DNA of 64,000 nucleotides from Candidatus Heimdallarchaeum aukensis (GTDB taxonomy: Archaea > Asgardarchaeota > Heimdallarchaeia > Heimdallarchaeales > Heimdallarchaeaceae), in contig CP084166.1 in the NCBI GenBank assembly GCA_021513695.1, positions 2,688,001 to 2,752,000 on the forward strand. Reading direction: 5' to 3'. Both the position numbers and the translations under genes were made by a program. The notes beneath the pieces are model-generated. The model was given only the letters and a program-made list of their open reading frames with translations. It ran no database searches and was not told the DNA's origin. Numbering within the stretch: the first letter of the stretch is position 1; each line of letters begins with the position of its first letter. Shown in pieces: positions 35,065 to 53,556 of this stretch.

Positions 35065-35108
35065 ATTATTAGAAATGAATATTGAAAAAATAAAAAGATT
35101 GTGAAAAG

Positions 35109-36554
35109 CTATCTGTATTTCTCGATAAGATAAGCGATAAGTTCCATTCCTTTAATCCAGTCTTCGACAAATATGTTCTCATTTGGAGCATGAGCATTAG
35201 AATCAGCATGACCTGTCCCTATTGATACACAAGGAATATCCTTAAACAGATACATAGGACCAGATCCTCCCACAATTGGCCAACAAATTGGATCGTGGTT
35301 ATAAACCTCTTTTATAACAGAAATAACTTTTTGGGCAAATTCATTTTCGATAGGAGTAACAGCTGCAGGATAACCATCCCATGAAGTTATCTCAATATGA
35401 GAAAAGTTTTGTTCATCTAAGTAAGTTCTAATTTTTTTAACTAAATCGTCTGGATTTTGTCCTGGAACCAATCTACAATCTACTTTAGCAAATGCTTCAT
35501 TTGGTGTAACGGTTTTACTTCCTTGTCCTTGGTATCCACTCCATATTCCACAAATATTAAGAGTAGGTTCGAGGAAATATTTTTTCTTTAAATCCATTCC
35601 TGATAAATTCATTCTGAATTTTTCAATCCCAAATGACTCTTTTAGATGTTCTTCTTTAATTTTAAATTCTCTTATTGTCTTCATCTCTTTCTCAGAGGGG
35701 GGTGTTATATTTTCATAAAAACCAGGAACAAGTATTTTGTCTTTTCTATCTTTGAGTGAACTTAAGGCCCAAACCAGTTCATAAGCTGCATTATCGACAA
35801 ACTGTGTATATCCAGAATGAATATCTCGTCCTATTGTTTTTGTATGAAAATGTAGGTATAGAATTCCTTTAACTCCTAAATTTACTTGCTGGATTCCATC
35901 CTTGTCCTTTCCTCCAAACTCCCAAATAATGCCATCTGTGTTTAGAGCAAAATCTTTGTTTTTCTCTACAAAATATCCTAAATTGGGGCTACCTATTTCT
36001 TCTTCTCCTTCTAATATAAATTTAATATTGACGGGTAACTCTCCAAAGATTTCTTTATAAGCTTTTATTGCTTGTAGCCTACAAATTATTTCTCCTTTAT
36101 TATCCGCGACACCACGAGCAAAGATCTTTCCTTCTCGAATAGTAGGTTCAAATGGAGGACTTTCCCATAATTCTACTGGGTCTTCAGGTTGAACATCATA
36201 ATGATCATAAAAACTGATTGTTTTTTCTGCTCCTGAATTTAACTCTGCACAAAAAACAGGGTTACCTGGTGTTTCTGCAACAAAGAAGTCAAATCCCGCT
36301 TCTTTAAAAATTTTCGTTAGAAAATCGATCGCTTCTTCTGTCCCTAATTTTTTTGCTGCAACTGTAGGGATTCTTAAAAATTCAAATAACAAGTCAAGAG
36401 ACTTTTCTTTATTTTGGTGAATAACTTTTGAAACATCATGAGAAGACATGATTAGTAATTGTTTGTTTAATTTATAAACTCTTTCGTTAAAATTAAGCTT
36501 TAAACTATTGATTATAAAAATTAAGAAAAATAGGATAAAACGTCTTTTAGGCAA
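35109..36554 (-). CDS. M20-family metallopeptidase (ArgE/DapE/carboxypeptidase-like). The start is probably the internal 'MSSHDV'.
   Basis: 'ISFYDHYDVQP...WESPPFEPTIREGKIFARGVADNKG' and 'HAPNENI' give the M20 metal-ligand pattern. Confidence 0.65.
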   Translation of the reverse strand: MPKRRFILFFLIFIINSLKLNFNERVYKLNKQLLIMSSHDVSKVIHQNKEKSLDLLFEFLRIPTVAAKKLGTEEAIDFLTKIFKEAGFDFFVAETPGNPVFCAELNSGAEKTISFYDHYDVQPEDPVELWESPPFEPTIREGKIFARGVADNKGEIICRLQAIKAYKEIFGELPVNIKFILEGEEEIGSPNLGYFVEKNKDFALNTDGIIWEFGGKDKDGIQQVNLGVKGILYLHFHTKTIGRDIHSGYTQFVDNAAYELVWALSSLKDRKDKILVPGFYENITPPSEKEMKTIREFKIKEEHLKESFGIEKFRMNLSGMDLKKKYFLEPTLNICGIWSGYQGQGSKTVTPNEAFAKVDCRLVPGQNPDDLVKKIRTYLDEQNFSHIEITSWDGYPAAVTPIENEFAQKVISVIKEVYNHDPICWPIVGGSGPMYLFKDIPCVSIGTGHADSNAHAPNENIFVEDWIKGMELIAYLIEKYR

Positions 36555-36586
36555 ATATTTAAGAGAGAGAGAAAAAGAAAATTCTT

Positions 36587-37774
36587 ATGGAAAAAAGAAA
36601 GTACAAGTTTGATACTTTATCAGTTCATGCTGGAGAAAACGTTGAAAAAACAGGAACTATAGCTCCTCCAATTTATCAGTCTGTTGCATACCCCTATTAT
36701 TCTGCAGAATACGCTGCAAAGTTGTTTAGATATGAAATAGAAGGATATATGTATGGAAGAATGGATAATCCCACAAATGCAATGTTTGAAGAAAGAATTG
36801 CAGCGTTAGAAAATGGTGAAAAAGCTGTTGGAACATCATCTGGTATGTCTGCTGAATTTTTAGCTTGTCTTCACTTGTTAGAGCATGGGGATAATTTTGT
36901 TACTGCTGGAAAAATATATGGAGGTACAAATCAACTCTTTACTGTAACATTACCCAAGATGGGCTTTAATCCTAAATTTGTATATGAACCAGATAATTTA
37001 GAAAATTGGGAAAAAGAAATTGACAAGAGAACAAAATTTCTTTATTTAGAAACACCCTCAAACCCCAATTTATTTGTTGGAGATATATCTGGTATAGCTA
37101 AACTTGCTCATGAACACGGAATTCCTCTAATTGTAGATAATACTGTAGCTTCTCCTGCTTTACAGAAACCTTTGAATCTTGGAGCAGATATAGTGGTTCA
37201 TTCAGCAACAAAATATCTTAGCGGAAATTCGACATGTATTTCGGGTGTAATAGTGGGTAAAGCTGATTTTATTGATGGAATAAGAGAAAAAGAGTACAGA
37301 AACATTGGTCCATCTATTAGCCCATTTAATAGTTGGTTGTTACTATTAGGGATGGAAACACTAAGCCTAAGAATGGATAAGCACAGTAAAAATGCTTTAG
37401 CTATTGCTGAGTTTTTAGAAGACCATTCAAAAATTGTTTCTGTTAACTATCCTGGTTTGAAGAGTCATCCTCAACATGAACTTGCGAAAAAACAAATGAA
37501 AGGATATAGTGGGCTATTATCCTTTGTAACTAAAGGAGAACTAGATGATGCGAAAAACGTTCTAAATAGTTTTCAGCTAATTATCCACACAGGACATCTG
37601 GGCACTACAAAAACACTAGCGACCCATCCAGCTTTTACTACACATCAGCAACTATCACAAGAAGAGAGAGAAGCAATAGGAATACCTGATACTATGATCA
37701 GAATGTCTGTAGGAATAGAAGATGTTGATGATTTAATAGAGGATTTAGATCAAGCCTTAACAAAGATTAAATGA
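36587..37774 (+). CDS. PLP-dependent Cys/Met-metabolism enzyme (O-acetylhomoserine sulfhydrylase / cystathionine gamma-synthase family)
   Basis: 'VVHSATKYLSGNSTCISGVIVG' is the PLP-Lys motif. There is overall MetY/MetB-like collinearity. Confidence 0.8.
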   Translation: MEKRKYKFDTLSVHAGENVEKTGTIAPPIYQSVAYPYYSAEYAAKLFRYEIEGYMYGRMDNPTNAMFEERIAALENGEKAVGTSSGMSAEFLACLHLLEHGDNFVTAGKIYGGTNQLFTVTLPKMGFNPKFVYEPDNLENWEKEIDKRTKFLYLETPSNPNLFVGDISGIAKLAHEHGIPLIVDNTVASPALQKPLNLGADIVVHSATKYLSGNSTCISGVIVGKADFIDGIREKEYRNIGPSISPFNSWLLLLGMETLSLRMDKHSKNALAIAEFLEDHSKIVSVNYPGLKSHPQHELAKKQMKGYSGLLSFVTKGELDDAKNVLNSFQLIIHTGHLGTTKTLATHPAFTTHQQLSQEEREAIGIPDTMIRMSVGIEDVDDLIEDLDQALTKIK

Positions 37775-37801
37775 AAATAATATGAGTTTAGTAGAGAATA
37801 A

Positions 37802-38641
37802 TTAGAATAATTGCTTTAATTGTTCAATTTTTTCTGCAGAATAATTATTTCTTTTCATTATTTTAAGAGCTTTATCGTAATATTCCTGTGCTTTTTTCTT
37901 CTTTTCTAGTTTAAGATATATCTTTGCTATTTGCATAACTATTGTAACCAGAAAGTCATCTTGTTTCTTATGTTCAAAATAAGACATTGCAGATAGAAAG
38001 TAATTTAATGCATCTTTTTCATTTTCTGTTGAGAGAGAAAGTAAAGCTAAGTCTATCTCTGCTAATGCTTTTTTTTCTTCAGCTTTTGCCTTCTTAAACA
38101 ATTGTATTGCTTTTTGATAAGCCAACTTAGTATTTTGAACAGAATTAGGGTTCTGTACATCTTTTAAAAGAGTATTTCCTATTTCTTTCCACGAATCACC
38201 TAAATGTTCTATAGATCCTATATCTTCAAAAAGTTCCTTTGAAATATCTAAAAATTTTATACTTTTTTCTATATTTTTGCATTCTCTGTGAAGAGAACCC
38301 ATCTTTAATGCACATTCAGCAGCCTTCTCAATATTTTGAATTTCAGTGAACTTAATGAAAGCTTCATTGAGAGACTTTAAGGCATAGTTCATCTGGTTCA
38401 AATTTAAGTATGCATGACCTAAAATAAACATACTTTCCGCAGCTAATTCCTTTGAATTTAAAGTTGAAAAAAGACTCTCTGCAAACTGTAGGTCTCTTAC
38501 ACACTTTTCATAATTCCCTTTTTCAAAATTAATTTTACCTTGATTAAAATACATGTTTGCTTGAGCTTTATGCGGATTAGCTGCTTCGACCATATGTGTA
38601 CTATTTGATTTTTCTTTTTTTAAATTCATGGATAGTACCAA
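37802..38641 (-). CDS. TPR-repeat protein
   Basis: TPR-like repeats ('ILGHAYLNLNQMNYALKSLNEAFIKF'). Confidence 0.5.
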   Translation of the reverse strand: MVLSMNLKKEKSNSTHMVEAANPHKAQANMYFNQGKINFEKGNYEKCVRDLQFAESLFSTLNSKELAAESMFILGHAYLNLNQMNYALKSLNEAFIKFTEIQNIEKAAECALKMGSLHRECKNIEKSIKFLDISKELFEDIGSIEHLGDSWKEIGNTLLKDVQNPNSVQNTKLAYQKAIQLFKKAKAEEKKALAEIDLALLSLSTENEKDALNYFLSAMSYFEHKKQDDFLVTIVMQIAKIYLKLEKKKKAQEYYDKALKIMKRNNYSAEKIEQLKQLF

Positions 38642-38880
38642 TTAGAAATTTTAATAGAAACGTAATACTCTCGATTTTTTTGAGAAAAGAGTAATTAAAA
38701 ATTAATGGAAAATGGATAAACTACAGTTTAATAATTAATCCTCTTTTGGTTTTTGTTATTAAAAAGTTTAAACTTATTTAAGCTATTCTCTATTTATATA
38801 GTTGTCATCACCTAATTTTGACAAGGAATCTATAAAAAAAGAAAAAAAAGAAAAAAATTTAGGCGCGAAATAGATAATTT

Positions 38881-39552
38881 TTGCTAGCTAAAGAAAAAGA
38901 AATAATTAAATTAGAAAAGCTTTATAAAGGCTATAAAGAAATCGACATGAATTTAAAAAAAAGGTGTTTAAAACCAATGACAAAATTAGATTTTGGTATA
39001 GTAATACAAAATGTAGTAGCAAGTATAAATCTGTACTGCACTATTGATTTAGTGAATGCTTATCAGATGCTTATTGATGACGATCAACTTTTTGTTTCTT
39101 ACAACCCTGAAACTTTTCCTGGTTTGATTCTTAAAATTAAAAAACCAAAAATTTCTTCTCTAGTTTTTTCTAGCGGCAAACTTGTTTTAACTGGCGCTAA
39201 ATCCACTGATATGGTAAATAAAGGCGTTCAACAGATGATTAAAATACTAAGATCTGTTGGCACAGAGATTACTGAAGAGCCTGAAATTATTGTTCAAAAC
39301 ATTGTTGCTAGCGGACATTTTAACAACCGTTCTATTAACTTAGAACTTGCTTCTTTATGGTTAGACCATTCTATGTATGAACCTGAACAATTTCCAGGTT
39401 TAATTTATCGTTTAGCTGAACCAAAAACAGTCTTACTTCTTTTCCAGAGTGGTAATCTTGTTTGTACTGGAGCTAAAACTGAAGAGCAAGTGCGGCAAGC
39501 AGTTGAAAATACGTATAACCACTTAGACGAAATTAATGCCTTTGAATTTTAA
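38881..39552 (+). CDS. tbp: TATA-box binding protein. The true start is likely an internal Met (~38947 or ~38977).
   Basis: Two direct repeats: 'IQNVVASINLYCTIDL...FPGLILKIKKPKISSLVFSSGKLVLTGAKS' and 'VQNIVASGHFN...FPGLIYRLAEPKTVLLLFQSGNLVCTGAKT'. Confidence 0.85.
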   Translation: MLAKEKEIIKLEKLYKGYKEIDMNLKKRCLKPMTKLDFGIVIQNVVASINLYCTIDLVNAYQMLIDDDQLFVSYNPETFPGLILKIKKPKISSLVFSSGKLVLTGAKSTDMVNKGVQQMIKILRSVGTEITEEPEIIVQNIVASGHFNNRSINLELASLWLDHSMYEPEQFPGLIYRLAEPKTVLLLFQSGNLVCTGAKTEEQVRQAVENTYNHLDEINAFEF

Positions 39553-39636
39553 TTTTATTTTTCACTTATTTTTTTATTATACTTCTACATCACGTAAAAT
39601 CTTTGTTACTAAATTAATAACTTAATTCTTTTTTCT

Positions 39637-41223
39637 TTATTTTTCTATAATTGTTAAATAGTTCTTCTGTACATTTTCACTTACTGATACAATTTCCACC
39701 TTCTTGAATTTTTGAGGAGACTTTATCAGCTCATATATTAATAAAATATCAAATTCTTCAAAATGCTTCTGTCTTACTACTGAATCAGGTACTATATGTC
39801 CTATTATTTGATATCCATCAAAAATTCTTTTTTTCTTGTTTAACGATTTCTCGTTTACAGTTGAGCCTGATAACAGTAGAGAACACATCTCATTTTCATA
39901 AGTTATTGCATTTATTAACAAAATCTCTATATTTTTTATTATTTCTTCGTTTTTCTTTTCATGTGTTATTGAACTTATTGCAGGGGTTATATGAATAACA
40001 TCTTTTAGATTTTCTATGATTTTTTTCTTGATATCATTTCTTTTCAAACCAAATATTGCATCAGAATCGGTTATTGCGGATCGATATTTGTAAACTCCGG
40101 GTTTTCCAAGCAAACTATCAGAATCTGTTTTAATCTTTAGATTTTTTAATTTAACAATGTCACTAGAAGATGAAGCAAGGTCGTAAACCATAGTAATATT
40201 TATTGCATTAGCCAACAAGTAAGCATAGTTTTTTCTTATTCGTTGTTGTTCATCATCTGTCAACTTTTTAGTATTTTTCAAAGCTTCAGGAAAAATGGAT
40301 AGAGCTTTAGAATATCCTTTATAATCACCTAATCCATTTGCGATAGCAGCATAAAGAATAGATTTTTTAGTTGTTTTATGTTGTTTTACAAAGTCTAAAA
40401 GTAAGGGTAGAATTCGCTCTACTTGCTCATCAGAAATCTTGCTCATCATTGTTAGAATGGATAACCTTTTTGCTATTTCGTTAGGATTTTTAACTTTAGA
40501 GAGTGTACGTAGAACTAGATTAACTCCATCTACAACCATTGATTTATACTTAGGTGCAACTATTAATCCTTGATTTTCGCTAAAAAGGTGAAGAAAAAAG
40601 TCTGAGGCCATATGTAGTTTTGTAGATGAATAAGCATTATCTTTAACTATTTCTATTACTTTCTTACATGAGTCTGCAGCATCGTTGATTTTTTTGTTAA
40701 ACATATGCATTAATCCGATATTTACTTCTGTGTATACCAAATTTTCTACCATGTTGTTTTTTTCTGCTATTTGCTTCGATTTAATGAGATATTCAAGAGC
40801 TTTATCCTTTTCCAGAGTTCTATAAATGGCAAACAGAAGATTTAAGGACTTAACTATCAATTCGGGGTTATTTATTTTATATGCCATATTTTTTGCTTTT
40901 TCTGCAGCTTTTCTTGCCCCTTCATATTCATTGTTTATCATAAAAGAATTAGCTAAGTTTAGGTAAAACCTAACATAATTCTCTCTTGAAGATAAAGGAA
41001 TTAAAGGTTTTATTCTTTTAAGGAGAATTAAAGCTTGAGAACGTTTTTCTTCTAATAACAATTCATATGTTTCGGATAAAAGAAAATCAACAAAACTGCT
41101 GATATCCATCTCTCTCTCGATTTCAAGATCAGATAATAGTTGTTTTCTCTTTTTATTATCTACGACAATTTCCTTTAACTCATCGACGCTAAAAGCTCCA
41201 ATGTACTTAACTACATCGCTCAT
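39637..41223 (-). CDS. Hypothetical helical-repeat (TPR-like) protein, 528 aa
   Basis: Helical repeat composition. Immediately downstream of hisS on the same strand. Confidence 0.4.
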   Translation of the reverse strand: MSDVVKYIGAFSVDELKEIVVDNKKRKQLLSDLEIEREMDISSFVDFLLSETYELLLEEKRSQALILLKRIKPLIPLSSRENYVRFYLNLANSFMINNEYEGARKAAEKAKNMAYKINNPELIVKSLNLLFAIYRTLEKDKALEYLIKSKQIAEKNNMVENLVYTEVNIGLMHMFNKKINDAADSCKKVIEIVKDNAYSSTKLHMASDFFLHLFSENQGLIVAPKYKSMVVDGVNLVLRTLSKVKNPNEIAKRLSILTMMSKISDEQVERILPLLLDFVKQHKTTKKSILYAAIANGLGDYKGYSKALSIFPEALKNTKKLTDDEQQRIRKNYAYLLANAINITMVYDLASSSSDIVKLKNLKIKTDSDSLLGKPGVYKYRSAITDSDAIFGLKRNDIKKKIIENLKDVIHITPAISSITHEKKNEEIIKNIEILLINAITYENEMCSLLLSGSTVNEKSLNKKKRIFDGYQIIGHIVPDSVVRQKHFEEFDILLIYELIKSPQKFKKVEIVSVSENVQKNYLTIIEK

Positions 41224-41241
41224 ACTTCACCACTACCACTT

Positions 41242-42744
41242 TTATTCTGTGTTAACTATTTTTCTTAGTTCGTCCTCTATTCCTTCAATTGGAAGTAATG
41301 TTTGTTCTCCTGTTTCAAGGTTTCGTAGAGTTACTTTATTTTGCTCTAGTTCTCTTTTTCCAACTATTATCATGTGTTTAATTTTTCTAGCAGCTGCATC
41401 TTCTAATTGGTTGGATAATTTCCATCCAAAAGGGTTGAACAAGACTCTAAACTCTTTTCTTAGTCTTGCAGTTATATCTGCCGCTTCCTTTATAACTTTC
41501 TTATTTACAGGAGCAACATAAAAATCTACTTTTTGACAATAAGTAGGTAACCTTCCCAAATCTTCTAAGATTGCCATTAATACGGTTTCTCCCATCCCTA
41601 TTCCAGTTGCAGGTATCTTTTCTCCACCGAAACTTGAGACCAATTGATCATATCTTCCACCACCAGCTATGGCTCTTACAACAGAACCAGTACGATCAAA
41701 AAATTCATAGACAATACCCGTATAATAATCTAAACCTCTAGCAATTGAAGCATTATATTCACAATTATTGATAACTCCAAAATATTCTAAATAAATAGCT
41801 AGTTCTCTTAATTTTTCTAATGCTAAACTAGCTTTCTCTCCCAAATCCAATTTTGAAATTTCTTCGAGGAAGAAAGAAGGCGTCCCTTTAGTTTTTGAAA
41901 AAAAGTATACCTTCTCTGCAATTTCTTCATCCAACCCTATTTTTATGAGCGTTTCAATGATTTTCTGTTTCTCTATTTCTGGGGAAAGTTCGTAATAATA
42001 ATTTATGTACTCCTTATCTTTATTGGATAAGTTTGGGAACTCTTTCTCTTTTTTTTGCTTTTTTAGTCTAACAAAAGTTGCAATTTCTTTTGCTTTAGAA
42101 GCAGTAAATTTTTTTTCTAAAAGTTCTTCTACAATAAAATCTTGGATGTACTTCTCTTTTGAATCTAAAACTTTGATTACATCAAGGTAATTTTCAATTC
42201 CTAAGTATTCAATATAACTTTGAACTAACTCTCTACTATTTATTACACAGATAAATTCTCCATCTTTTAATCCACTAGTTTTAATAATGTTACATGTTAA
42301 AGCAATAATTTCTGCATCAGCTGCAGGGTGATCGACACCTATAATATCTGCATTAAATTGAAAAAATTCTCTTACTCTCCCTTTCTGAGGAGTTTCATTT
42401 CTAAAAATTCTAGGTATTGAAAACCAGCGGATTGGTTTAGGATAACGTTGTTGTTCATTTACAATCATTCTAGCTAAAGTGGGTGTTTGCTCTGGACGAA
42501 GAACAAGTTTTCGATCATCTTTACCTTTAACAATAAAAGTCTCTTCTAATATTTCCTCACCTGATTTAATCTCAATTAATTTTGCATATTCTAAAGAAGG
42601 GCCTTCGTATTCCTCATAACCAAAACTTTCAGAGACTTTTTTCATAATATCTAGAATGTAGTTTACCTTCGCAAAATCTGCAGGATAATAATCTCGAAAA
42701 CCTTTAATTCCTTTTAGTATCTCCTTAAGTACTCCGTCATCCAT
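41242..42744 (-). CDS. hisS: Histidyl-tRNA synthetase (class II)
   Basis: 'GFRDYYP...RPEQTP...RWFSIPRIFRNE' (motif 1/2) and 'AIAGGGRYD' (motif 3). Confidence 0.9.
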   Translation of the reverse strand: MDDGVLKEILKGIKGFRDYYPADFAKVNYILDIMKKVSESFGYEEYEGPSLEYAKLIEIKSGEEILEETFIVKGKDDRKLVLRPEQTPTLARMIVNEQQRYPKPIRWFSIPRIFRNETPQKGRVREFFQFNADIIGVDHPAADAEIIALTCNIIKTSGLKDGEFICVINSRELVQSYIEYLGIENYLDVIKVLDSKEKYIQDFIVEELLEKKFTASKAKEIATFVRLKKQKKEKEFPNLSNKDKEYINYYYELSPEIEKQKIIETLIKIGLDEEIAEKVYFFSKTKGTPSFFLEEISKLDLGEKASLALEKLRELAIYLEYFGVINNCEYNASIARGLDYYTGIVYEFFDRTGSVVRAIAGGGRYDQLVSSFGGEKIPATGIGMGETVLMAILEDLGRLPTYCQKVDFYVAPVNKKVIKEAADITARLRKEFRVLFNPFGWKLSNQLEDAAARKIKHMIIVGKRELEQNKVTLRNLETGEQTLLPIEGIEDELRKIVNTE

Positions 42745-42863
42745 TTAATTTCAAAGACAATTTCCAGAGGAGTTTAAATAATTTAGCTTCTTTAAGATAT
42801 TTCTAGATATATGCCAGTAGAAAAATTAAGGAAAAAAAAAGAATAAATGTTAAAATGATCTAT

Positions 42864-43844
42864 CTATTCATCTTGAAAATCTCTTATTAGGGTAACTTCA
42901 AAGAGTGGTGCAGCTTTTACAGACCAGAAAACTTGTTTATCTATTATATTGCTTAGAAGGTAACGCGTTATTTCAGTTTCAGTTAAACCTGTTTTTGTTT
43001 TCTTGATACCTTGTAAATCCTTCACAAATTCTATCAACAATTTCGTTAATAGATTTGTAGATCTTATTTGTTCCATTCTGGTGGTAACTAACCAACACGA
43101 AACAGAATCATCAGCAGCCATGATAAACTGACGGTCTCTATATTTCAAAATTTCAATTATAGGAAAATGACTAGAAGAAAATTTACACTGAATGACTGGA
43201 GATAAAATATCAGAGTTCAAATTAGATTGAGGAGTAGTTAATCTCATCTCGTAAACTCCCTTATCAGTTTTGATGTAAGAAATAAACATCTCAACAGTTA
43301 TTTTGTCAACTATTAATTGTTGGATAATGCTTGAAGCTAACCAATTAATTGTTCTATCAAAATTTTTTCCTGAACTAAAGGATGTGCTTAAATACTCGAT
43401 GTTTTTTTTTCTTACTCCATCTGAAAATTTCTTAACTATGGATTTTACTTCAGAGTTAGAGAATTCTTCATCTCTCATGTTAAATAATACTAAAACAGGA
43501 TTTTCTTCTTTTAACCAATTTAAAGAGCGAGTAAACCACTTTTTAGATTCATGTAGCTGATCTTTTTTAGTAATATCTGTAACATAAATAAGTGCATCAG
43601 AGCGAGAAATAAAACTCTTCCATAAGGTCTTTCTAAAAGAAGGAAGACCACCTAAATCAGTAATATCTAATATTATACCATCGGCATTATATAACTCGTG
43701 GTTAACTCCCATTGTAGAAGTGATAATGGTGTTGTTGTAACCTAATAGACGGTTAATGAAATAAGTTTTGCCAGAATTTTCTAATCCAGCAACAGTAACA
43801 GAAATATCACGTTTCAAATAATAATAATTCGGTGACACATCCAA
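42864..43844 (-). CDS. Rag/Gtr-like small GTPase with a C-terminal extension of about 150 aa (possible roadblock/longin-type domain)
   Basis: G1 'VAGLENSGKTYFINRL'. Switch-I Thr in 'IITSTMGV'. G3 'LDITDLGG'. 'ALIYVTDI' then 'VLVLFNMRDEE' parallel RagA 'VLIYVFDV' and 'LVHKMDL' (an H/N-K/M-x-D G4 variant). 326 aa matches Rag length. Confidence 0.55.
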   Translation of the reverse strand: MDVSPNYYYLKRDISVTVAGLENSGKTYFINRLLGYNNTIITSTMGVNHELYNADGIILDITDLGGLPSFRKTLWKSFISRSDALIYVTDITKKDQLHESKKWFTRSLNWLKEENPVLVLFNMRDEEFSNSEVKSIVKKFSDGVRKKNIEYLSTSFSSGKNFDRTINWLASSIIQQLIVDKITVEMFISYIKTDKGVYEMRLTTPQSNLNSDILSPVIQCKFSSSHFPIIEILKYRDRQFIMAADDSVSCWLVTTRMEQIRSTNLLTKLLIEFVKDLQGIKKTKTGLTETEITRYLLSNIIDKQVFWSVKAAPLFEVTLIRDFQDE

Positions 43845-44274
43845 TCCCCAGCAATAGGTAACCCCGAAACGATCTTCATCGTAAGTAGATGTAAATTGAA
43901 TATTAAGAAGAAATACTTCTTAGTATATTCAGATTTTTAACATCCAATGAAGATTGTTTATTAAACTAGTATTAACAATATAAATATATAATTATATCGT
44001 TTTTAGTTTAAATGAACTTCTTTTAAAGTTAAAATCGTTGAAAAAAAAATTAGAGGATTGAATTAGATGAAATTACAAGAAAAAAATCAAAAAAGAGGAA
44101 GAAAGAAAAACAAAAAAAAAGCTTTTAGTTAAATTGGGAGACTGCTACTTAAAAAGAATTATCTGAACCTATAAATAGAAAGTAATGCTTATAAATGCGT
44201 CTGGTTTTCGTTGTTATAGTTAGTATAAGGAAATTTATTGTTCAAAGTGAACAAAAAGAAAAAGGTGAAATTAT

Positions 44275-45282
44275 TTGAGTTTAAAAGGATATATACTCAG
44301 ACGAACAATCTACATAGTTCCTATTATGCTTGCAATTACACTAATGAACTTTACACTGATTAACATCAGTCCAGGAGATCCTGTTTTAGTAAGATTAGGA
44401 CTGATTAAATGTGAAACACCTGAATGTTACAACGCAGCGTACAACAAAGAAGCAATAGAAATGGGACTACTAGATAATAGTTTATACACTGTTCCATGGT
44501 TCGAAAGATATATAGATTTTGTAAATGATCTATTGCATTTCGACCTAGGAAAAAGCTGGTCATATACCCAAGCAGGAGAAGGGATACCGATATCGAAAAT
44601 AATTGGAGACCACGCAGTTTATACGGTGGTGCTAAACTTACTATCATTTGTTTTATCACTATTATTATCAACAGCAATAGGGGTAGTATCAGCAACAAGA
44701 CAAAACAGTTTCTGGGATAGAACACTAACAGTAGCAATGCTATTAGGATATTCTATGCCTTTGTTCTGGTTAGCAAAATTGTTAATGCTAGTGTCCTATT
44801 ATTTATTTAACTTTACAGGAGTAGCAAACAAATCGGCGTTTAACAAACCGTTAATACTGAACCCGATGTTCTATAAGTTCTTAATATTACCAACATTGTC
44901 ACTAACACTGGGTGGACTAGTGTTCATGGCAAGGTTAATTAGATCACAACTGCTGGAGATATTAAGACAAGATTACATAACAACTGCAAAATCAAAAGGA
45001 TTAGATAGAAGAGCAGTAATATACAAACACGCGTTCAGAAATGGTTTATTGCCTATAGTAACAATTATAGGAAATTCACTACCAGGATTACTATCCGGGT
45101 CAGTAATGGTTGAGTCAGTCTTCGGATGGCCAGGATTAGGAACAATATTCCTAGAAGCTGCATTTATGAGAGATTATCCAATGATGATGGCAACAAACAC
45201 AATATTTCCATTCCTGTTCCTAATAGCAAGATTGCTGACAGATATAACCTATGTCTTTATAGACCCGAGAATAAAATACTAA
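44275..45282 (+). CDS. oppB: Oligopeptide/dipeptide ABC transporter permease (OppB/DppB-like)
   Basis: 6 TM. 'EAA'-loop region 'ITTAKSKGLDRRAVIYKHAFRNGLLPIVT'. Confidence 0.8.
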   Translation: MSLKGYILRRTIYIVPIMLAITLMNFTLINISPGDPVLVRLGLIKCETPECYNAAYNKEAIEMGLLDNSLYTVPWFERYIDFVNDLLHFDLGKSWSYTQAGEGIPISKIIGDHAVYTVVLNLLSFVLSLLLSTAIGVVSATRQNSFWDRTLTVAMLLGYSMPLFWLAKLLMLVSYYLFNFTGVANKSAFNKPLILNPMFYKFLILPTLSLTLGGLVFMARLIRSQLLEILRQDYITTAKSKGLDRRAVIYKHAFRNGLLPIVTIIGNSLPGLLSGSVMVESVFGWPGLGTIFLEAAFMRDYPMMMATNTIFPFLFLIARLLTDITYVFIDPRIKY

Positions 45283-45301
45283 AAGAGGAGAGTAAAGAAA
45301 A

Positions 45302-46363
45302 ATGGCAACAGTTGATAAAAAAGCAGTAGAAGAGGAAGGACCAATTCTAGATGAAACAACTTTAAAAGAAATTGAAAGCATGAAAGGAGCAGGACAATGG
45401 TCTATTGTATGGAGAAGATTGAAAAAGGATACAATGGGAATGGTAGGATTATACATTGTAACATTCCTAATATTGATGGCAATAGTGTCCTGGTTCTTAC
45501 TAATGTACGATAAATGGCTATTTAATAATGTAGCACTAACAAGAGATCCAGATAATCCATACTCACTAGCTAATCTATATGTAGACTTCTGGCTACCTGG
45601 AATGAAGGAACCAATAATACTGTTCCAACATCCAGAATGGCAATTCGCAGATCAAGTAAAATTGCCACCAAGCATTGAACACCCATTTGGAACAGATAAA
45701 AACGGAAGAGATATGTTCTCAAGAGTGTTCTTTGGAGCTACAATATCAATGGCTCTAGGTTTCATTGGACAAATGACAACCGTAATCATCGGAACAATTT
45801 TAGGATCACTTTCTGGATATTATGGTGGATTATTTGACGACATCCTACAAAGAATAGTAGAATTACTATACTCAATGCCTGGATTTATCTTGCTAGTGTT
45901 CGTAATCGTGCTATTCGAAAATACAAATATACCAGGAGGAAGATACGCAGTAGTAGTAATATTCTTCTCACTAATAAGCTGGGGAGGAACAGCACTTATA
46001 GTAAGATCGAACTTCTTCTCGCTAAAACAACAAGACTTTGTAGAAGCAGAAAAAGCACTAGGGGCAGCAGACATGAGAATAATATTCAGACATATACTAC
46101 CAAACTCACTAGCACCACTGATAATTATAATAACGCTAGGTATAGCAGGAACAATATTCACATTCGCAGCACTAGCATTCTACGGATTCGGAGACCCAAA
46201 CGTCGTTTCCTGGGGTGACGACCTTAACCGCTGGCAAAATGATCTCATGACTTATCCGTGGATGCCCATGTTTCCCGCTCTAATGATATTTTTCACAGTG
46301 TTGGGTTTCAACTTACTTGGTGACGCCCTTCGTGATGCTCTTGATCCTCGTTTGAAAGATTAA
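45302..46363 (+). CDS. oppC: Oligopeptide/dipeptide ABC transporter permease (OppC/DppC-like)
   Basis: 'VEAEKALGAADMRIIFRHILPNSLAPLII' is the EAA loop. N-terminal extension before TM1 is typical of OppC. Confidence 0.8.
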   Translation: MATVDKKAVEEEGPILDETTLKEIESMKGAGQWSIVWRRLKKDTMGMVGLYIVTFLILMAIVSWFLLMYDKWLFNNVALTRDPDNPYSLANLYVDFWLPGMKEPIILFQHPEWQFADQVKLPPSIEHPFGTDKNGRDMFSRVFFGATISMALGFIGQMTTVIIGTILGSLSGYYGGLFDDILQRIVELLYSMPGFILLVFVIVLFENTNIPGGRYAVVVIFFSLISWGGTALIVRSNFFSLKQQDFVEAEKALGAADMRIIFRHILPNSLAPLIIIITLGIAGTIFTFAALAFYGFGDPNVVSWGDDLNRWQNDLMTYPWMPMFPALMIFFTVLGFNLLGDALRDALDPRLKD

Positions 46364-46650
46364 ATTAATTCTTTTTTTCCTTTTTCAATTATTTTTTCAA
46401 CTATTTCTAAAAATAATAATACTTTGAGTTTAGATAGACTCTTGTAACTTTTAAGGAAGTAGAAGCGCTAATTTATCTCTTTCAATAAAATTATTCCAGA
46501 AAACAATTGACATTTATTTCCTATCCTGTTGTTCATCAAGCAGAATTTGAGCAACCTATGCTTATATAGCATGTGGAAAAGCTTATACAGAAGGCAGAAA
46601 AGCGACATAATTATTATAAATATCTGTAAGAAAATATAGTCGCTCAACTA

Positions 46651-47340
46651 GTGGAAAATGTAACAAGGGAGATAAAAAAATCATGCCTAAATTACTTAGG
46701 AAAAAAAATTATGTATAAATTGCTGGGAAAATTATTAATACTAATATTACTGCTTCCAATACTTATTTTTCATGGTGTGTTATCAATTAGAGGTGCTCAA
46801 CCTGTTCTCGCTTCTAGAATTTCTGAGATTACTGAAATCACAATTTCTGAATCTACTGATAACCCTTTATTTGAAAATTATACTGCTTTTAAAATCGAAG
46901 CTGAAGTAGAGATCTTAAATAGAGCTGATGAAAATCAAACAGTTATTTCTCCTGATCTTAAACTTATGATTAATGCAAGCTTGGTTAATCAATCATTGAA
47001 GTTGGTAGTGGAAGCAATGGGTTCTTGTATGGTTACTTACGACACCTATTCTCCTGGTATCACTATTGAAAATCACTCTCTTAAATTCTATATTAATCAA
47101 ACGGATTTAAGTTATCTCCCTGATGGTAATTATACTCTCTGGAGACCTATTAATGGGGGAGAAGAATTACCTACGATTATTATAATTAAATCTGGTATAA
47201 TGAATATTACTTACAGTAGTTTTGGCAATCAAGAGACTGAAGCGGTGAGCTTTTTCCTTCTGTTTCCTTTAATGTTATTCCTTCCACTCTTTTCATATGT
47301 GATTGTCTTTTCTAAATGTAAAAAGTCAGAGATTGCTTAA
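46651..47340 (+). CDS. Membrane-anchored extracellular protein (N-terminal signal/TM, N-glycosylation-sequon-rich ectodomain, C-terminal TM anchor)
   Basis: 'MYKLLGKLLILILLLPILIF' near the N-terminus, several N-x-S/T sequons, and C-terminal 'VSFFLLFPLMLFLPLFSYVIVF'. Its 3' end plus downstream sequence is repeated at 51467..51564. Confidence 0.4.
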   Translation: MENVTREIKKSCLNYLGKKIMYKLLGKLLILILLLPILIFHGVLSIRGAQPVLASRISEITEITISESTDNPLFENYTAFKIEAEVEILNRADENQTVISPDLKLMINASLVNQSLKLVVEAMGSCMVTYDTYSPGITIENHSLKFYINQTDLSYLPDGNYTLWRPINGGEELPTIIIIKSGIMNITYSSFGNQETEAVSFFLLFPLMLFLPLFSYVIVFSKCKKSEIA

Positions 47341-47391
47341 AAGTTTCTTAGAAAAAAAACCTTACCATTTTTTGTTAAATTTTTGCCTTTG
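47299..47391. repeat. Left copy of a ~95-bp direct repeat (3' end of the 46651 gene plus downstream)
   Basis: 'ttttctaaatgtaaaaagtcagagattgcttaaaagtttcttagaaaaaaaaccttaccattttttgttaaatttttgccttt' re-occurs at 51467..51564 with a few mismatches. Confidence 0.8.
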
Positions 47392-47539
47392 TAATCATCT
47401 TATGTGCTCTTTAGGAATTATTTAAGAGATTATATGCGACAAAGGAGTTTTGTACTGACGTGGATGAAGAAGTACATAAATTTTTTAATGTTTTTGGGAA
47501 TATGATTTAAATCTTTATAATTGGAGGAAAATTGTTCTC

Positions 47540-48484
47540 ATGTTATCAGCTAGCAATATATCAAAAACATATCCGAATGGTATTAAAGCATTGCAAGACG
47601 TAAATCTTGAGGTTTCCGAAGGAGAGATAATGGGATTTATTGGCCTAAATGGTGCAGGAAAGACTACTTTTATTAAAATTGCGAATGGTGTGCTGCAAAA
47701 TGATACAGGTAACATTACGATATGTGGTATGAACCCCATATCTGAATTAAAAAAAATAACTCGTAAAATTGCTTGGATTCCTCAAGATGGTCTAAGAAAA
47801 TTCAACACATTTCTTTCTGGTCGTGATAATATAATCTATTTTTCAAGACTGAAGGGTATGAATTCCTTGCAGATTAATCAAAAGTTAGATGAACTCTTGG
47901 AGCATCTATGTCCAGCAAAGGATTTTATTGATAAGAAAATTTCAATTATGAGTGGAGGACAAAAGCAATTGTGCAATCTGTTAACGGGTTTTGTGTTAGA
48001 TAGCGAGTTTCTATTTTGTGATGAAATTTCAGTAAATATTGATCCTATAACCTTAGATAAGATCTACTCTTATTTGCGAGAATATGCATCAGAAGGTAAG
48101 TCTGTATTATTAACCTCACAAAATCTCCATGAAATTGAAGAGTTGTCAAACACTATCGCACTATTACACAAAGGAAAGATTATGCAGGTAGGAAAACCAA
48201 AGGACATATCCAATAAACTTCTAAAATATGAAATAATCGACATAGGGTTTGAAGAAAGAATGAAGGAACTGAATTCAATAAAAGATTTTAGCTTAAAACT
48301 GGAATCAATAGCTGATAAAATAATTATTGATAATGAAAAAAATTTGATACGTATTTATTGTGAAGATTCACTGAGCCTTTTACCTCAAGTAGTTGAGTTT
48401 CTAAAAGAGTATAACTTTGCTGCATCTATAGAAAGTGGTAAAGCTGATTTAACTAATGCAATTATAACTTTAGCGGGGAGATAA
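47540..48484 (+). CDS. ABC transporter ATP-binding protein (ABC-2/CcmA-like) with a C-terminal accessory domain of about 90 aa
   Basis: Walker A 'GLNGAGKTT', signature 'MSGGQKQ', Walker B 'FLFCDE'. 'ggagg' lies 8 nt upstream of the ATG. Confidence 0.8.
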   Translation: MLSASNISKTYPNGIKALQDVNLEVSEGEIMGFIGLNGAGKTTFIKIANGVLQNDTGNITICGMNPISELKKITRKIAWIPQDGLRKFNTFLSGRDNIIYFSRLKGMNSLQINQKLDELLEHLCPAKDFIDKKISIMSGGQKQLCNLLTGFVLDSEFLFCDEISVNIDPITLDKIYSYLREYASEGKSVLLTSQNLHEIEELSNTIALLHKGKIMQVGKPKDISNKLLKYEIIDIGFEERMKELNSIKDFSLKLESIADKIIIDNEKNLIRIYCEDSLSLLPQVVEFLKEYNFAASIESGKADLTNAIITLAGR

Positions 48485-48486
48485 CT

Positions 48487-49326
48487 ATGAAAACGTTTAT
48501 TGCGAACTTTATAACACAAATAAAATATTTTACTGGCCTCAGAGTCATATGGATTTCAAGGATCGTTTATGTTTTTGTATCCTTACTCACCTCATTTACA
48601 ATGGGTATGGTGTATAAATTTAATGAAGCAACACAAAATTTGATAGGTGTCCAAAATGTTGCTATATTTGTTCTTACTGGCTTTTTCTTGCAATTTTTAA
48701 TGAATGCAAGTTCAGGTTATACACCAGCAGCAGTTAGGGAGATGATACAAAATGGAAACCTTGAGTATTCAGTACATTGTGGAGCTAATATTGTTCAACA
48801 AATATTGGGTATATACATCGCTTCATATCTCTTCGATTTCGTTATTTGTTTGCCTTTCATTGTTACTTTGTCTCTCTTAACCATTAATACAATTTCAGTT
48901 TACGCTTTATTGTCTTTTATAGGTTTTCTCTTTATTTCAGGTTTGTGTCTTTTTTCTATAGGCTTTCTGTTTTCTTCTCTTTACGTTCTGAGCAAGGGAT
49001 TTCTTGGTTTTCATAGTGTGATTGCAAACATAGTCTACTTTATCTGTGGGGTCTATTTTCCAATACAAGGCTATTTAACTCTATTCGGTTCTGTGGGTGG
49101 CTGGATTGCCATAGCTATTGTGTCTATTTTTCCGTATACATATGTATTTGACCTATCACGTTATATGATTTTTCTCGGGCAAAATTATCAAACGTTTTTA
49201 CCTTTTGGTATTGAATTGATAATATTCATTTGTTCTTCAATTTTAATAATGCTTATTGCAATGCAACTATTCAAGTTAGGATTTAAAAGAATGAGAAAAA
49301 AAGGTTTCATAAGTTTTATCTACTAA
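48487..49326 (+). CDS. ABC-2-type transporter permease
   Basis: Six hydrophobic helices. Start overlaps the upstream ATPase stop by spacing, which suggests an operon. Confidence 0.6.
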   Translation: MKTFIANFITQIKYFTGLRVIWISRIVYVFVSLLTSFTMGMVYKFNEATQNLIGVQNVAIFVLTGFFLQFLMNASSGYTPAAVREMIQNGNLEYSVHCGANIVQQILGIYIASYLFDFVICLPFIVTLSLLTINTISVYALLSFIGFLFISGLCLFSIGFLFSSLYVLSKGFLGFHSVIANIVYFICGVYFPIQGYLTLFGSVGGWIAIAIVSIFPYTYVFDLSRYMIFLGQNYQTFLPFGIELIIFICSSILIMLIAMQLFKLGFKRMRKKGFISFIY

Positions 49327-49451
49327 TTCTAAATTTTCATTTTTCCCTTATTTTTTCTTATTCTTCCTTTTTCTTGATTTTTAGATTGTTTTTACTGCAA
49401 CTTATTAAGTAACAATTAAAAATAATAAAACTAATTATCTCTTGATTAAAC

Positions 49452-51464
49452 GTGCGTGATAATTTTTTCTTTCTTAGAAGGTTAAATCTTTTGGGTAAAC
49501 TTGAGAAGTTCGATAAATATTTTTCTTCTATTGATTGGACTTCTATTTTGGATGAAATCAATGAACGCTTGTTTTTTTTTGGTGGAGGTTATAGTCGCAT
49601 TCTTGATTTATTTTCTGCTACTCTCATTGAACGTGGTATTTGGTTTGATTCTCGTTATTATATGAGCAATAAAGTTCTTAAAATTGTCTTTAAGGTTTTA
49701 TCTCAGTTTGCAGATAACAACCTTATTTTTTCTTTAGTTTCTGCTTTGGATGACTACGATTCTGATGTTCGTGCTGCTGTTGCTGAGCTGTTAGGTCTAA
49801 TTGGCCATTCTCTTGCTGTTGACCCCTTAATCAAATTACTCAAAGATGAGAATTGCTTTGTTCGCAGTAGTGTTGTCATAGCTTTGGGTAAGCTTGGTGA
49901 TCCTCGCTCCATTGCTGCATTTAATGATATTGCCTTATATGATGATTCCCAGGGTGTGCGTGCCGATGTTATACGATCCTTGAGAGAGATAGGTGATCCT
50001 CTTGGTGTTTCCCTTCTAATCGAAGCCCTAAAAGATGAGGATAGTATTGTTGTAAGAGCTGCTTTAGAAGTCTTGCTAGAATTGGTTGATTCTGGTTCTG
50101 TTGAGTTATTAATAGAAGCTCTAAAAGATAGGCATTGGTTTGTTCGCAGTAGTGTTGCAGAAGCGTTAGGCAAAATAGGAGACCCTAGAGCCATTGACTC
50201 CCTAGTAGCTGCCTTGAAAGATAAGGATTATTTTGTTCGCAGTAGTGTTGCAAAAGCTTTAAGTAAAATGGACGATTCTAGAGCCATTGACTCCCTAGTA
50301 GCTGCCTTAAAAGATAAAGATTTGCGAATGCGTCGTATTGCTGCAGAAGTGTTGGGAGAAATAGGTGACTCTAGGGCAGTTGAACCCTTAATAGATGTAG
50401 CTCTAAAAGATGAGGGTTTTTTTGTGCGTGAAAAAGCTATAATACTGTTAGGTGAACTAGGTGATTCTAGAGCAGTCAAGCCCTTAATAGAATTACTAAA
50501 AGATGAAGATTGGGAAGTGCGTCGTAATGTTGCAACAGCGTTGGGTAAAATAGGTGACCCTAGAGCCATTGAACCATTAATCAATGCAACTCTATATGAT
50601 GGTAATTGTGAAGTGTGTTATTTTTCTAAAGAGTCACTGATAAAAATAGGTGATATGAGTGCCGTTGAACCTCTAATAGAAGGACTGAAAGATAAGCATC
50701 CTTCTGTTCGTTGTGTTGCTGCTGAAGTGTTAGGTGAACTAGGTGATTCTAGAGCTGTCAAGCCCTTAATAGAATTACTAAAAGATGAAAATAGGAAAGT
50801 GCGTTGTGATGCTGCAGAAGCGTTAGGTAAAATAGGTGACCCTAGAGCCATTGAACCATTAATCAATGCAACATTATACGATGATGTTTTTCATGTGCGT
50901 AATAATGCTGCCTCGGCACTGAGAGAAATAGGCGTTTCTAGTGCTGTTGAACCATTAGTTAAACTAGCCTTATATGATGAAGATTCAGAAGTGCGTAAAA
51001 ATGCTGCTTATGCTTTAGGTGAAATATGTAATCCTAATGTCGTTGACCCATTAATCGATGCAGACCTATATGATGATGAGGAAGTGTGTGAAAATGCTTC
51101 CTCTGAGTTAGGTTTAAGATGTGATCCTAGTTCAGCTGAATTATTAGTAAATTTAACACTCTATGAGGAGGATTCAGTAGTGCGTGCAAGAGCTTTAAAT
51201 TTATTGGTTCAAATACGTGATTCAATTGCAATAGAAAAATTAATCAATATAGTGCTGTATGATGAAGATTCAGAAGTGCGTAAAAATGCCGCAAAAGCCT
51301 TAGGTGAGATAGGTGATACAAATTCATTTGAAACATTAATAATGAATGCCCTAGATGATGACGAGGGGAAAGTGACTAAAAATGTTGAAGAAGCTGTAAG
51401 AATAATGGGCGATCCTGAATTAATTGAATCACTAGAAGATGCCCTATTAAATAAGAGTTGGTAA
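49452..51464 (+). CDS. HEAT-repeat (PBS-lyase HEAT-like) protein with about 17 tandem 31-aa repeats. A likely ATG start is at ~49662.
   Basis: Reiterated 'D.xVR..AA.ALG.IGD.RAI.PLI..LKDE' units. The 5' 70 codons start with GTG and are low-complexity. Confidence 0.75.
   Translation: MRDNFFFLRRLNLLGKLEKFDKYFSSIDWTSILDEINERLFFFGGGYSRILDLFSATLIERGIWFDSRYYMSNKVLKIVFKVLSQFADNNLIFSLVSALDDYDSDVRAAVAELLGLIGHSLAVDPLIKLLKDENCFVRSSVVIALGKLGDPRSIAAFNDIALYDDSQGVRADVIRSLREIGDPLGVSLLIEALKDEDSIVVRAALEVLLELVDSGSVELLIEALKDRHWFVRSSVAEALGKIGDPRAIDSLVAALKDKDYFVRSSVAKALSKMDDSRAIDSLVAALKDKDLRMRRIAAEVLGEIGDSRAVEPLIDVALKDEGFFVREKAIILLGELGDSRAVKPLIELLKDEDWEVRRNVATALGKIGDPRAIEPLINATLYDGNCEVCYFSKESLIKIGDMSAVEPLIEGLKDKHPSVRCVAAEVLGELGDSRAVKPLIELLKDENRKVRCDAAEALGKIGDPRAIEPLINATLYDDVFHVRNNAASALREIGVSSAVEPLVKLALYDEDSEVRKNAAYALGEICNPNVVDPLIDADLYDDEEVCENASSELGLRCDPSSAELLVNLTLYEEDSVVRARALNLLVQIRDSIAIEKLINIVLYDEDSEVRKNAAKALGEIGDTNSFETLIMNALDDDEGKVTKNVEEAVRIMGDPELIESLEDALLNKSW
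50430..50890. repeat. Near-identical internal tandem duplication of about 280 bp (three HEAT units) inside the HEAT-repeat gene
   Basis: 'ggtgaactaggtgattctagagc.gtcaagcccttaatagaattactaaaagatgaa...ggtaaaataggtgaccctagagccattgaaccattaatcaatgcaac' occurs at ~50451 and ~50733, about 90% identical. Confidence 0.7.
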
Positions 51465-51466
51465 AT

Positions 51467-51564
51467 GTGATATGTGCTTGTTTTTTCTAAATGTAAAAAA
51501 TCAGAAACTGCTTAAAAGTTTCTTAGAAAAAAATCTTACCTTTTTTGTTAAATTTTTTCTTTTC
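51467..51564. repeat. Right copy of the ~95-bp direct repeat. Together the two copies flank the 4.1-kb ABC-2/HEAT module.
   Basis: 'ttttctaaatgtaaaaaatcagaaactgcttaaaagtttcttagaaaaaaatcttaccttttttgttaaattttttcttttc', same orientation as the left copy. Confidence 0.8.
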
Positions 51565-51597
51565 TCTTTCCTTTCTCTTCTTTTTTGCTAACTTTTG

Positions 51598-51810
51598 TTA
51601 ATACCTGAATCTTTCTCTAGATTTTAAATAAATTTCCATCAGTTTTGGTTTTTTTGACGCTCTATCCATTAGTTCTTCAATTTCTTTCTTTGGTTGTCCT
51701 TTTTCTGCTTTAATTCTTGATGTAGTAACGATCACATAAATTAACATCGCAGTAATAGCTAAAAAACCTCCAAAAACGATTATACCGAAGGCTACTATTA
51801 CTATATTCAT
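51598..51810 (-). CDS. Small single-TM protein (copy 1 of a tandemly duplicated gene)
   Basis: 70 aa 'MNIVIVAFGIIVFGGFLAITAMLIYVIVTTSRIKAEKGQPKKEIEELMDRASKK'. About 75% identical to 52082..52297. Confidence 0.45.
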   Translation of the reverse strand: MNIVIVAFGIIVFGGFLAITAMLIYVIVTTSRIKAEKGQPKKEIEELMDRASKKPKLMEIYLKSRERFRY

Positions 51811-51879
51811 CGAATAATAATAGCTTTCAACAATTAAATACTTTTGGAAAAAAGGTATAATTAATTATCTCTTAATTTT

Positions 51880-52065: not shown

Positions 52066-52081
52066 TTTTTACTGACTTATG

Positions 52082-53551: not shown

Positions 53552-53556
53552 CTTTA

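Follow-up and report, generated by a model that had tools for sequence, protein, structure and literature searches.

The gene analyzed here encodes a two-domain small GTPase that is confined to Heimdallarchaeaceae and present in a single copy per genome. We interpret the protein, with a probability of roughly 0.6, as a lineage-specific GTPase that combines a G domain of the Arf/Rag supergroup, closest to those of Arf, Arl, and ArfR proteins, with a C-terminal longin-like domain (Table 1). An initial annotation based on the nucleotide sequence had placed it in the Rag/Gtr family, a membership that our analyses do not support. The gene lies in a 64-kb stretch of DNA from "Candidatus Heimdallarchaeum aukensis," hereafter called the window.

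The 326-aa open reading frame and the motifs quoted for it in the initial annotation are present (GLENSGKT at residues 20 to 27, DITDLGG at residues 60 to 66, and VLVLFNMRDEE at residues 117 to 127). The frame corresponds to UJG40556.1, a protein of 324 aa from "Ca. Heimdallarchaeum aukensis" that is identical to it from V3 onward and bears the GenBank label "50S ribosome-binding GTPase." Translation probably starts at the GTG at position 43838, which yields the 324-aa product, because a GGGGA sequence is found 6 nt upstream of this codon and the starts of the homologues coincide with it in the family alignment. With 21 clusters of full-length homologues, 27 genomic loci, a mean column identity of 66%, and numerous invariant residues in each half of the protein, this is a genuine gene and not a chance reading frame. 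None of the papers searched cites UJG40556, UJG43283, or OLS32647.

Table 1 Features of the GTPase locus, in window coordinates
Feature	Position	Strand	Basis or remark
Two-domain small GTPase gene	42864..43844	(-)	Listed ORF of 326 aa with TTG start; homologues, upstream GGGGA
G domain, residues 12-179	43308..43811	(-)	Pfam Arf, PDB matches, AF2 pLDDT mostly 83-96
G1/P-loop GLENSGKT, residues 20-27	43764..43787	(-)	G20, G25, K26, and T27 invariant
G3 DLGG plus L67, residues 63-67	43644..43658	(-)	Family alignment
Degenerate G4 NMRD, residues 122-125	43470..43481	(-)	Family alignment
C-terminal longin-like domain (predicted), residues 182-326	42867..43301	(-)	β-β-loop-β-β-β-α-α-β
GTPase-hisS spacer	42745..42863	(-)	T-run directly after the GTPase stop codon; TATA-like element
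TATA-like AAATTATTTAAA	42773..42784	(-)	~30 nt before the hisS ATG
hisS, histidyl-tRNA synthetase, 500 aa	41242..42744	(-)	Conserved downstream neighbor
528-aa TPR-like protein gene	39637..41223	(-)	Conserved third gene
Archaeal TBP gene	38881..39552		
279-aa TPR protein gene	37802..38641	(-)	Adjoins the 528-aa gene in most loci

Scanning 185,579 species genomes yielded the 27 loci, never more than one in an assembly. By sequence, all of them belong to the Heimdallarchaeota lineage, including some that were deposited as Thorarchaeota or as "uncultured archaeon." The named sources of the 21 clusters were likewise all Heimdallarchaeaceae or Heimdallarchaeota, except for one deposited as Pacearchaeota. 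The Asgard origin anticipated in the initial annotation is thus confirmed by the correspondence with UJG40556.1, and the argument made there that such a protein would be remarkable outside eukaryotes loses its object, as the window itself comes from an Asgard archaeon. The G+C content of the window is approximately 31%. Searches for other small GTPases, tRNAs, and Rfam RNAs across its 64 kb detected none. No paralogous heterodimer partner was found, there being one small GTPase in the window and one family locus in each of the 27 assemblies.

Profile searches assigned the G domain to the Arf family. The Pfam Arf model (PF00025) matched residues 11 to 172 of the window GTPase with 68.4 bits against a cut-off of 22.3 (E = 7.2e-19), and the alignment spanned positions 12 to 173 of the 174 in the profile. 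Gtr1_RagA (PF04670) gave no match to this protein even at E<=10. The MMR_HSR1, Roc, Ras, and SRPRB models came far behind Arf, and NCBIfam returned generic matches only, all below threshold. Across the family, Arf matched 19 of 19 members (best E = 8e-29), and Gtr1_RagA matched 7 of 19 (best E = 2e-9). Because Tran et al. (2024, PMC10933270) report that Rag-like Asgard GTPases defined by structure are often annotated as Arf, we submitted to the same search 10 Helarchaeales proteins curated as RagGtr in Table S3 of Vargova et al. Gtr1_RagA was the top Pfam family for all 10 (70 to 102 bits), with Arf second. Pfam therefore separates Arf from Rag, and it places the window GTPase with Arf. A best match to Arf without any Rag signal, as obtained here for the G domain, is the outcome that the initial annotation itself had named as contradicting the Rag/Gtr assignment, which accordingly does not hold up.

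Comparisons with known structures pointed in the same direction. The best phmmer matches in the PDB were Arl8A and Arl8B (E = 8e-15), followed by Asgard ArfR proteins (8ouk and 8oum), Arl1, Arl3, and Arf1. For the G domain, Foldseek gave target-normalized TM scores of 0.87 with both Arl8b and Arl1 and of 0.81 with HodArfR1. When seven family members were searched with phmmer, Arl8A, ARF1, and the Loki ArfR OLS16410 outranked all 27 Asgard RagGtr references; the Arl8A sequence was copied from the PDB search, and the human ARF1 and RagA sequences served as auxiliary references only.

The alternative that survives best is that the protein is a divergent but genuine member of the Rag/Gtr lineage, which would dimerize like RagA/C or behave like the homo-oligomeric LokiRagO. 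We regard this as unlikely, and yet several observations speak for it. Besides the weak Gtr1_RagA matches in 7 of 19 members and the frequent Arf labels of Rag-like Asgard proteins mentioned above, an HMM built from the G domains of Asgard RagGtr proteins gives the family 50 to 70 bits. In a neighbor-joining tree (BLOSUM62, 63 sequences), a crude method applied to a limited reference set, the family was monophyletic (100%) and stood outside RagGtr as its sister group, with 66% bootstrap support. This weakly supported placement may reflect a distant affinity with Rag, but it does not support membership. In hhalign comparisons, the family scored 179 to 181 against ArfR, 158 against RagGtr, and 104 to 116 against ArfL. 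ArfR and RagGtr scored 188 against each other, as high as the family against either, and the family, ArfR, and RagGtr are therefore roughly equidistant. For the window ORF itself, the ArfR HMM gave 68 bits versus 57 bits for the RagGtr HMM. Profile scores thus favor ArfR slightly, and we place the G domain closest to Arf, Arl, and ArfR, with any deeper position among ArfR, RagGtr, and other groups being tentative.

The G-domain motifs were then compared across the family alignment (Table 1). Threonine 44 of switch I and the D63-L64-G65-G66 stretch are invariant, as are R71, W75, G159, N161, and W168. In Arf, Rag, and Ras proteins, the residue that follows DxGG is the catalytic Gln. In this family the position varies among L, R, K, S, and D and is Gln in no member. 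The G4 motif reads N-[TKMQ]-[WRK]-[DTKN]; its Asn is invariant, the canonical Lys is missing in most members, and the Asp is kept in most. Both the switch II (FRxxLWxSY) and the helix-5 signature (SGKNxxxTxxWL) of the family are of the Arf type, and FRKTLWKSF and SGKNFDRTINWL match FRSMWERY and KDNIDITLQWL of Arl8A column for column. In Arf proteins the interswitch toggle works together with an amphipathic helix, which may carry a myristoylated Gly2. Neither this N-terminal helix nor Gly2 was found in the family alignment or in the AF2 model. The 11 to 16 residues that precede strand 1 are polar or aromatic and poorly conserved (e.g., MSPNYYYLKRD and MLESKENNELVTSSRD), and they are modeled with a pLDDT of <50.

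Hallmarks of Rag proteins were absent as well. Most of the curated Asgard RagGtr sequences examined have a longer switch II and read HK.D and (T/S)(T/S)I(Y/F). The window GTPase lacks the HKxD, DxGGQ, and TSI[FYW][DN] motifs and the long switch II, and it has NMRD, DLGGL, and STSFSSGKN. The G4 motif, which the initial annotation had taken for a variant of the Rag HKxD, is accordingly not one, given NMRD in the window protein and the G4 pattern of the family. Similarly, the stretch "ALIYVTDI...VLVLFNMRD," presented there as RagA-like, fits "AIVYMVDA...VLVLGNKRD" of Arl8 at least equally well.

We analyzed the C-terminal half using the family alignment and AF2 models. The non-GTPase half postulated in the initial annotation is real, comprises approximately 145 aa, and is conserved, with the motifs SCWLVT, NLLxKLLxEF, QxFWS, and PxFE and an invariant R238. 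The R238-Q239 pair as a whole is invariant and is predicted to lie in the turn between β3 and β4. The models were built from shallow alignments of 9 to 19 sequences; the full-length model has a mean pLDDT of 79 and a pTM of 0.66, and that of residues 178 to 326 has a pLDDT of 81 and a pTM of 0.79. The longin topology is β1-β2-α1-β3-β4-β5-α2-α3. Both models have the order β-β-(coil 204-228)-β-β-β-α-α-β, in which the region expected to form helix 1 is modeled as coil with a pLDDT of ~62. By structure comparison, the predicted domain resembles longin domains more than roadblock domains. The isolated C-terminal model gave no significant Foldseek match in the PDB (best E of 0.03, TM of at most 0.49).

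At the sequence level, the C-terminal domain had no match in Pfam or NCBIfam, and a profile built from it yielded no PDB match at E<=10. An exhaustive HMMER search of 1.84e9 proteins with the C-terminal profile returned five clusters only, all from the family itself, and hhalign detected no similarity to the CRDs of Asgard Rag proteins or to the N-terminal longins of ArfL. We therefore describe this domain as a sequence orphan with a predicted longin-like fold. The roadblock CRD of Rag/Gtr proteins was not recognized in it. Of the Rag-type roadblock that had been proposed, what stands is the broader class, a longin/roadblock platform with a longin-like order of elements in the model of residues 178 to 326; the roadblock fold itself gives way to the better longin match and the lack of profile similarity with Rag CRDs.

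The architecture of the whole protein also speaks for the Rag/Gtr alternative. Foldseek with the full-length model ranked LokiRagO (8yl2_B) first, with 322 aligned columns over both domains, and also matched Schizosaccharomyces pombe Gtr (8fw5_D); the LokiRagO match has the same E value as that of the single-domain Arl8b and a TM score of only ~0.4. The predicted model thus shows an overall two-domain layout that resembles Rag, with the G domain first and the platform second. We found no paper on the LokiRagO structure (8YL2). The more general part of the initial annotation holds up: the protein is a small GTPase with two domains and belongs to the Arf/Rag supergroup.

From the conserved sequence, domains, motif states, and neighborhood, a mechanism may be sketched for an Arf-like GTPase with a built-in longin-like platform. 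An intact P-loop, the switch-I Thr, and DxxG, all with invariant residues, would be expected to permit nucleotide binding and conformational switching. Since the catalytic Gln is absent family-wide and the G4 Lys is absent from most members, intrinsic hydrolysis would be very slow or negligible, and nucleotide affinity or exchange and the contacts with the base would be altered. Turnover would then hinge on a residue contributed in trans. Platform domains serve Rag, MglA, SRβ, Rab, and Arf, and in Rag CRDs, MglB, SRX-SRβ, and longin GEFs and GAPs they mediate dimerization or the docking of regulators or effectors. By analogy, the longin-like domain could provide such a platform for dimerization or docking within the same polypeptide, and the lineage-specific TPR proteins encoded nearby would be the most likely partners.

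The gene neighborhood is conserved as well. As annotated initially, the neighbors in the window gene inventory are hisS and a gene for a TPR-like protein. The order GTPase gene, hisS, and ~530-aa TPR-like gene was found in every locus with enough sequence, and the ~530-aa gene is usually followed by a convergent gene for a ~265-aa TPR protein. In Heimdallarchaeum, the 279-aa TPR gene is inverted and split from the 528-aa gene by the TBP gene. The triplet is kept in both Heimdallarchaeum and the most divergent member of the family (31% identity), despite different outer flanks. One locus considered as an exception to this gene order was rejected as such, as its GTPase gene and hisS are merely set apart by an insertion of 4.4 kb.

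The 528-aa protein is K9W45_12060 of "Ca. Heimdallarchaeum aukensis" (100% identity). Its TPR matches in Pfam are all below threshold, and those in the PDB, to LGN/GPSM2 and TTC29, are not significant (E of 0.04 to 0.3). All of its homologues with a named source belong to the lineage in which the GTPase occurs, so that this protein is as lineage restricted as the GTPase. For the 279-aa TPR protein, a relationship to SNAP (alpha-SNAP) was considered and rejected, as its PDB matches are generic TPR proteins.

The spacer between the GTPase gene and hisS harbors a TATA-like element whose equivalent, GTTAAATATTTTT, is kept in most other loci about 27 to 35 nt before the hisS ATG. hisS thus probably has its own promoter. 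The idea of a GTPase-hisS operon is weakened by this conserved element and by the T-run that follows the GTPase stop codon in the window. As hisS has a TATA-like element of its own, the gene order does not require co-transcription or functional coupling, and the genes may have stayed adjacent through shared regulation or simply by inheritance. Gene order, and only gene order, suggests a link between the GTPase and HisRS. If the protein did belong to the Rag/Gtr lineage, its adjacency to an aminoacyl-tRNA synthetase gene could hint at amino-acid-related signaling. A bolder proposal, which we consider a long shot, is a signaling module specific to Heimdallarchaeaceae and made up of the GTPase, HisRS, and the two TPR proteins, in which the Gln-less Arf/Rag-like switch with its own longin platform would sense histidine or the charging of tRNA-His and the invariant R238 or a TPR partner would supply the catalytic residue. 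If this were true, the module would parallel in archaea, as an analogue or as a separate invention, the eukaryotic nutrient sensing that runs from aminoacyl-tRNA synthetases to Rag.

The same adjacency, which is found in essentially all loci, could be read as the sign of a translation- or ribosome-associated GTPase tied to hisS, in line with the names "50S ribosome-binding GTPase" and "GTPase Era" that depositors have given to family proteins and with a Pfam MMR_HSR1 match (E = 2.3e-07). However, the MMR_HSR1 model is generic for G domains, with a score 37 bits lower than that of Arf, and the NCBIfam models for Era, Der, YlqF, MnmE, and HydF reach 11 to 25 bits against cut-offs of 124 to 631. 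No KH or other RNA-binding domain was found in the protein, its C-terminal fold is predicted to be longin-like, and hisS has its own promoter-like element, which together make this reading very improbable. Equally hard to credit is a fused analogue of the eukaryotic pair in which the longin-like SRX domain binds SRβ-GTP, with the G domain as an Arf-derived, SRβ-like moiety and the C-terminal domain as SRX, since SRPRB ranks well below Arf (22.8 for the window GTPase, against a gathering cut-off of 25), about 30 other longins rank above SRX, the protein has no N-terminal transmembrane anchor, and no FtsY/SRα NG domain or SRP gene is found nearby.

Our preferred reading, an Arf-like G domain followed by a longin-like platform, bears on a wider question, as Asgard GTPases and their longin or roadblock partners are central to debates on the origin of the eukaryotic switches for membrane trafficking and nutrient signaling. 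The family combines an Arf-type sequence with a Rag-type domain order and a longin-like platform. Its analysis shows that motif-based "Rag" calls in Asgard genomes need profile controls, and the conserved position of the gene beside hisS and lineage-specific TPR genes provides a short list of candidate partners.

Among known systems, the G domain is matched best, in profile as in structure, by the Arf family (PF00025; HodArfR1, 8OUK; GerdArfR1, 8OUM; human Arl8A/B). Shared with Arf are the P-loop GLxxxGKT, the T-x-G-x-N of switch I, a switch II FRxxLWxxY of equal length, and the helix-5 pattern G-x-N-[IL]-x-x-[TA]-[IV]-[DN]-W-L. In contrast to Arf, the window GTPase has neither the amphipathic helix and Gly2 nor the Trp of WDxGGQ, it has Leu in place of the catalytic Gln (ITDLGGL), and it reads NMRD instead of NKxD. 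Published Asgard Arf proteins carry their additional domains at the N terminus, such as the longin of AArfs (Zhu et al., PMC11914678), whereas the 145-residue longin-like domain is C-terminal here. With Rag/Gtr proteins, including LokiRagO (8YL2), the window GTPase shares a total length of about 300 to 330 aa and the succession of a G domain and a C-terminal alpha/beta platform of the longin/roadblock class. It differs from them by the absence of a Gtr1_RagA profile match, HKxD, TSI[FYW]D, and an extended switch II, by a longin-like C-terminal domain without profile similarity to the Asgard Rag CRD, and by the lack of a detected paralogous partner. Longins of the GAP type (FLCN, NPRL2, SMCR8, and their Asgard look-alikes) have a GP motif in the β1-β2 loop and a catalytic Arg finger (PMC12290439). 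Compared with such longins (NPRL2/NPRL3 of GATOR1, FLCN/FNIP, and SMCR8/C9orf72), the family lacks the GP motif (the loop reads K-T-[DSEN]-x-G-[VIL], and all members are without Pro there), and the longin-like domain is part of the GTPase polypeptide itself.

Vargova et al. sort the Asgard Ras superfamily into ArfR, ArfL, RagGtr, RasL, MglA, Rup3, and unclassified small clusters. Fusions of GTPases with longin or roadblock domains have been published for Lokiarchaea (Tran et al. 2024, PMC10933270); they stand between Arf and Rag and are often annotated as Arf. With its Asgard origin, Arf/Rag-like G domain, and fused longin-like domain, the family joins this described class. Because GenBank already holds the protein, its general class has been described, and many such GTPases exist in Asgard genomes, the finding is an incremental one. 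We found no description of the features particular to this family, namely, the pairing of Arf-type sequence with Rag-type domain order, the loss of the Gln in all members, the degenerate G4, and the conserved hisS/TPR neighborhood. Judged by their descriptions, the Lokiarchaeal fusions differ from the present family, which belongs to the Heimdallarchaeaceae lineage and is set apart by its orphan C-terminal domain, the absence of the catalytic Gln from every member, its degenerate G4, and a conserved hisS/TPR neighborhood.

Comparison of Heimdallarchaeaceae loci carrying homologues of the two-domain GTPase gene revealed a conserved gene neighborhood. The order GTPase gene, hisS, gene for a TPR-like protein of ~530 aa was found in essentially all of the 27+ loci (37802..43844 in the window; loci L001-L031), usually followed by a convergent gene for a ~265-aa TPR protein. 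The order of the first three genes persists despite differing outer flanks and GTPase identity that falls to 31%. In MAG 18H4_34, a 4.4-kb insertion (7196..11290 of its locus, L009) separates the GTPase gene from hisS. Besides three ORFs, of 411, 388 and 383 aa, it contains a fragment of 120 aa that is encoded on the other strand. Judging by eye, we take the 383-aa product to resemble BadF/BcrA-type ATPases (activases), and the two larger products may, we presume, be 2-hydroxyacyl-CoA-dehydratase-like.

Features of the GTPase-hisS neighborhood
Feature	Sequence	Position	Strand	Remark
279-aa TPR protein gene	window	37802..38641	-	
TBP gene	window	38881..39552	+	
528-aa protein gene	window	39637..41223	-	restricted to the GTPase lineage
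hisS	window	41242..42744	-	HisRS, 500 aa
TATA-like element	window	42773..42784		equivalent spacer position in L001-L031
TBP gene	locus L005	10294..10911		

The GTPase ORF as listed begins with a TTG at 43844 of the window. A GTG two codons downstream, at 43838, is the start in the GenBank model and in all GTPase homologues, and is preceded 6 nt upstream by GGGGA. At the other end of the gene, a T-run follows the stop codon in the window. A TATA-like element of sequence GTTAAATATTTTT, which reads AAATTATTTAAA in the window, is conserved in the spacer between the GTPase gene and hisS. It lies ~27-35 nt ahead of the ATG start codon of hisS and follows a likewise conserved (G)AACAATAG. This element probably serves as the promoter of hisS, whose leader would then be very short.

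The 528-aa protein has a TPR-like N-terminal half, whose similarity to the TPRs of LGN/GPSM2 is non-significant. In its last ~150 residues, which matched nothing known, several motifs are strongly conserved (DSDA, SLLL.G.T, GYQ..GH..P and KH.EE). The 279-aa TPR protein scored 33.8 bits against Pfam SNAP (alpha-SNAP/Sec17; gathering cut-off, 25). We did not retain this identity, as the match probably reflects TPR cross-matching, given that a PDB sequence search returned generic TPR proteins only.

A TBP gene lies between the genes for the 528-aa and 279-aa proteins only in the two Heimdallarchaeum genomes. Between H. aukensis and H. endolithica, its product is 100% identical over 206 aa, the proteins flanking it are 87-92% identical, and the upstream OppB is 99% identical. 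Across the whole 64-kb window (1..64000), ARAGORN predicted no tRNA genes and no Rfam family reached the gathering threshold. G+C content rises locally to 0.386 at 20001..22000, against a background of ~0.30.

In the window HisRS, the insertion that separates the catalytic-core segments (insertion at residues ~208-305) exceeds that of Thermoplasma HisRS (1wu7) by ~65 residues. The C-terminal 230 residues of the window protein align along their entire length with human cytosolic HisRS.
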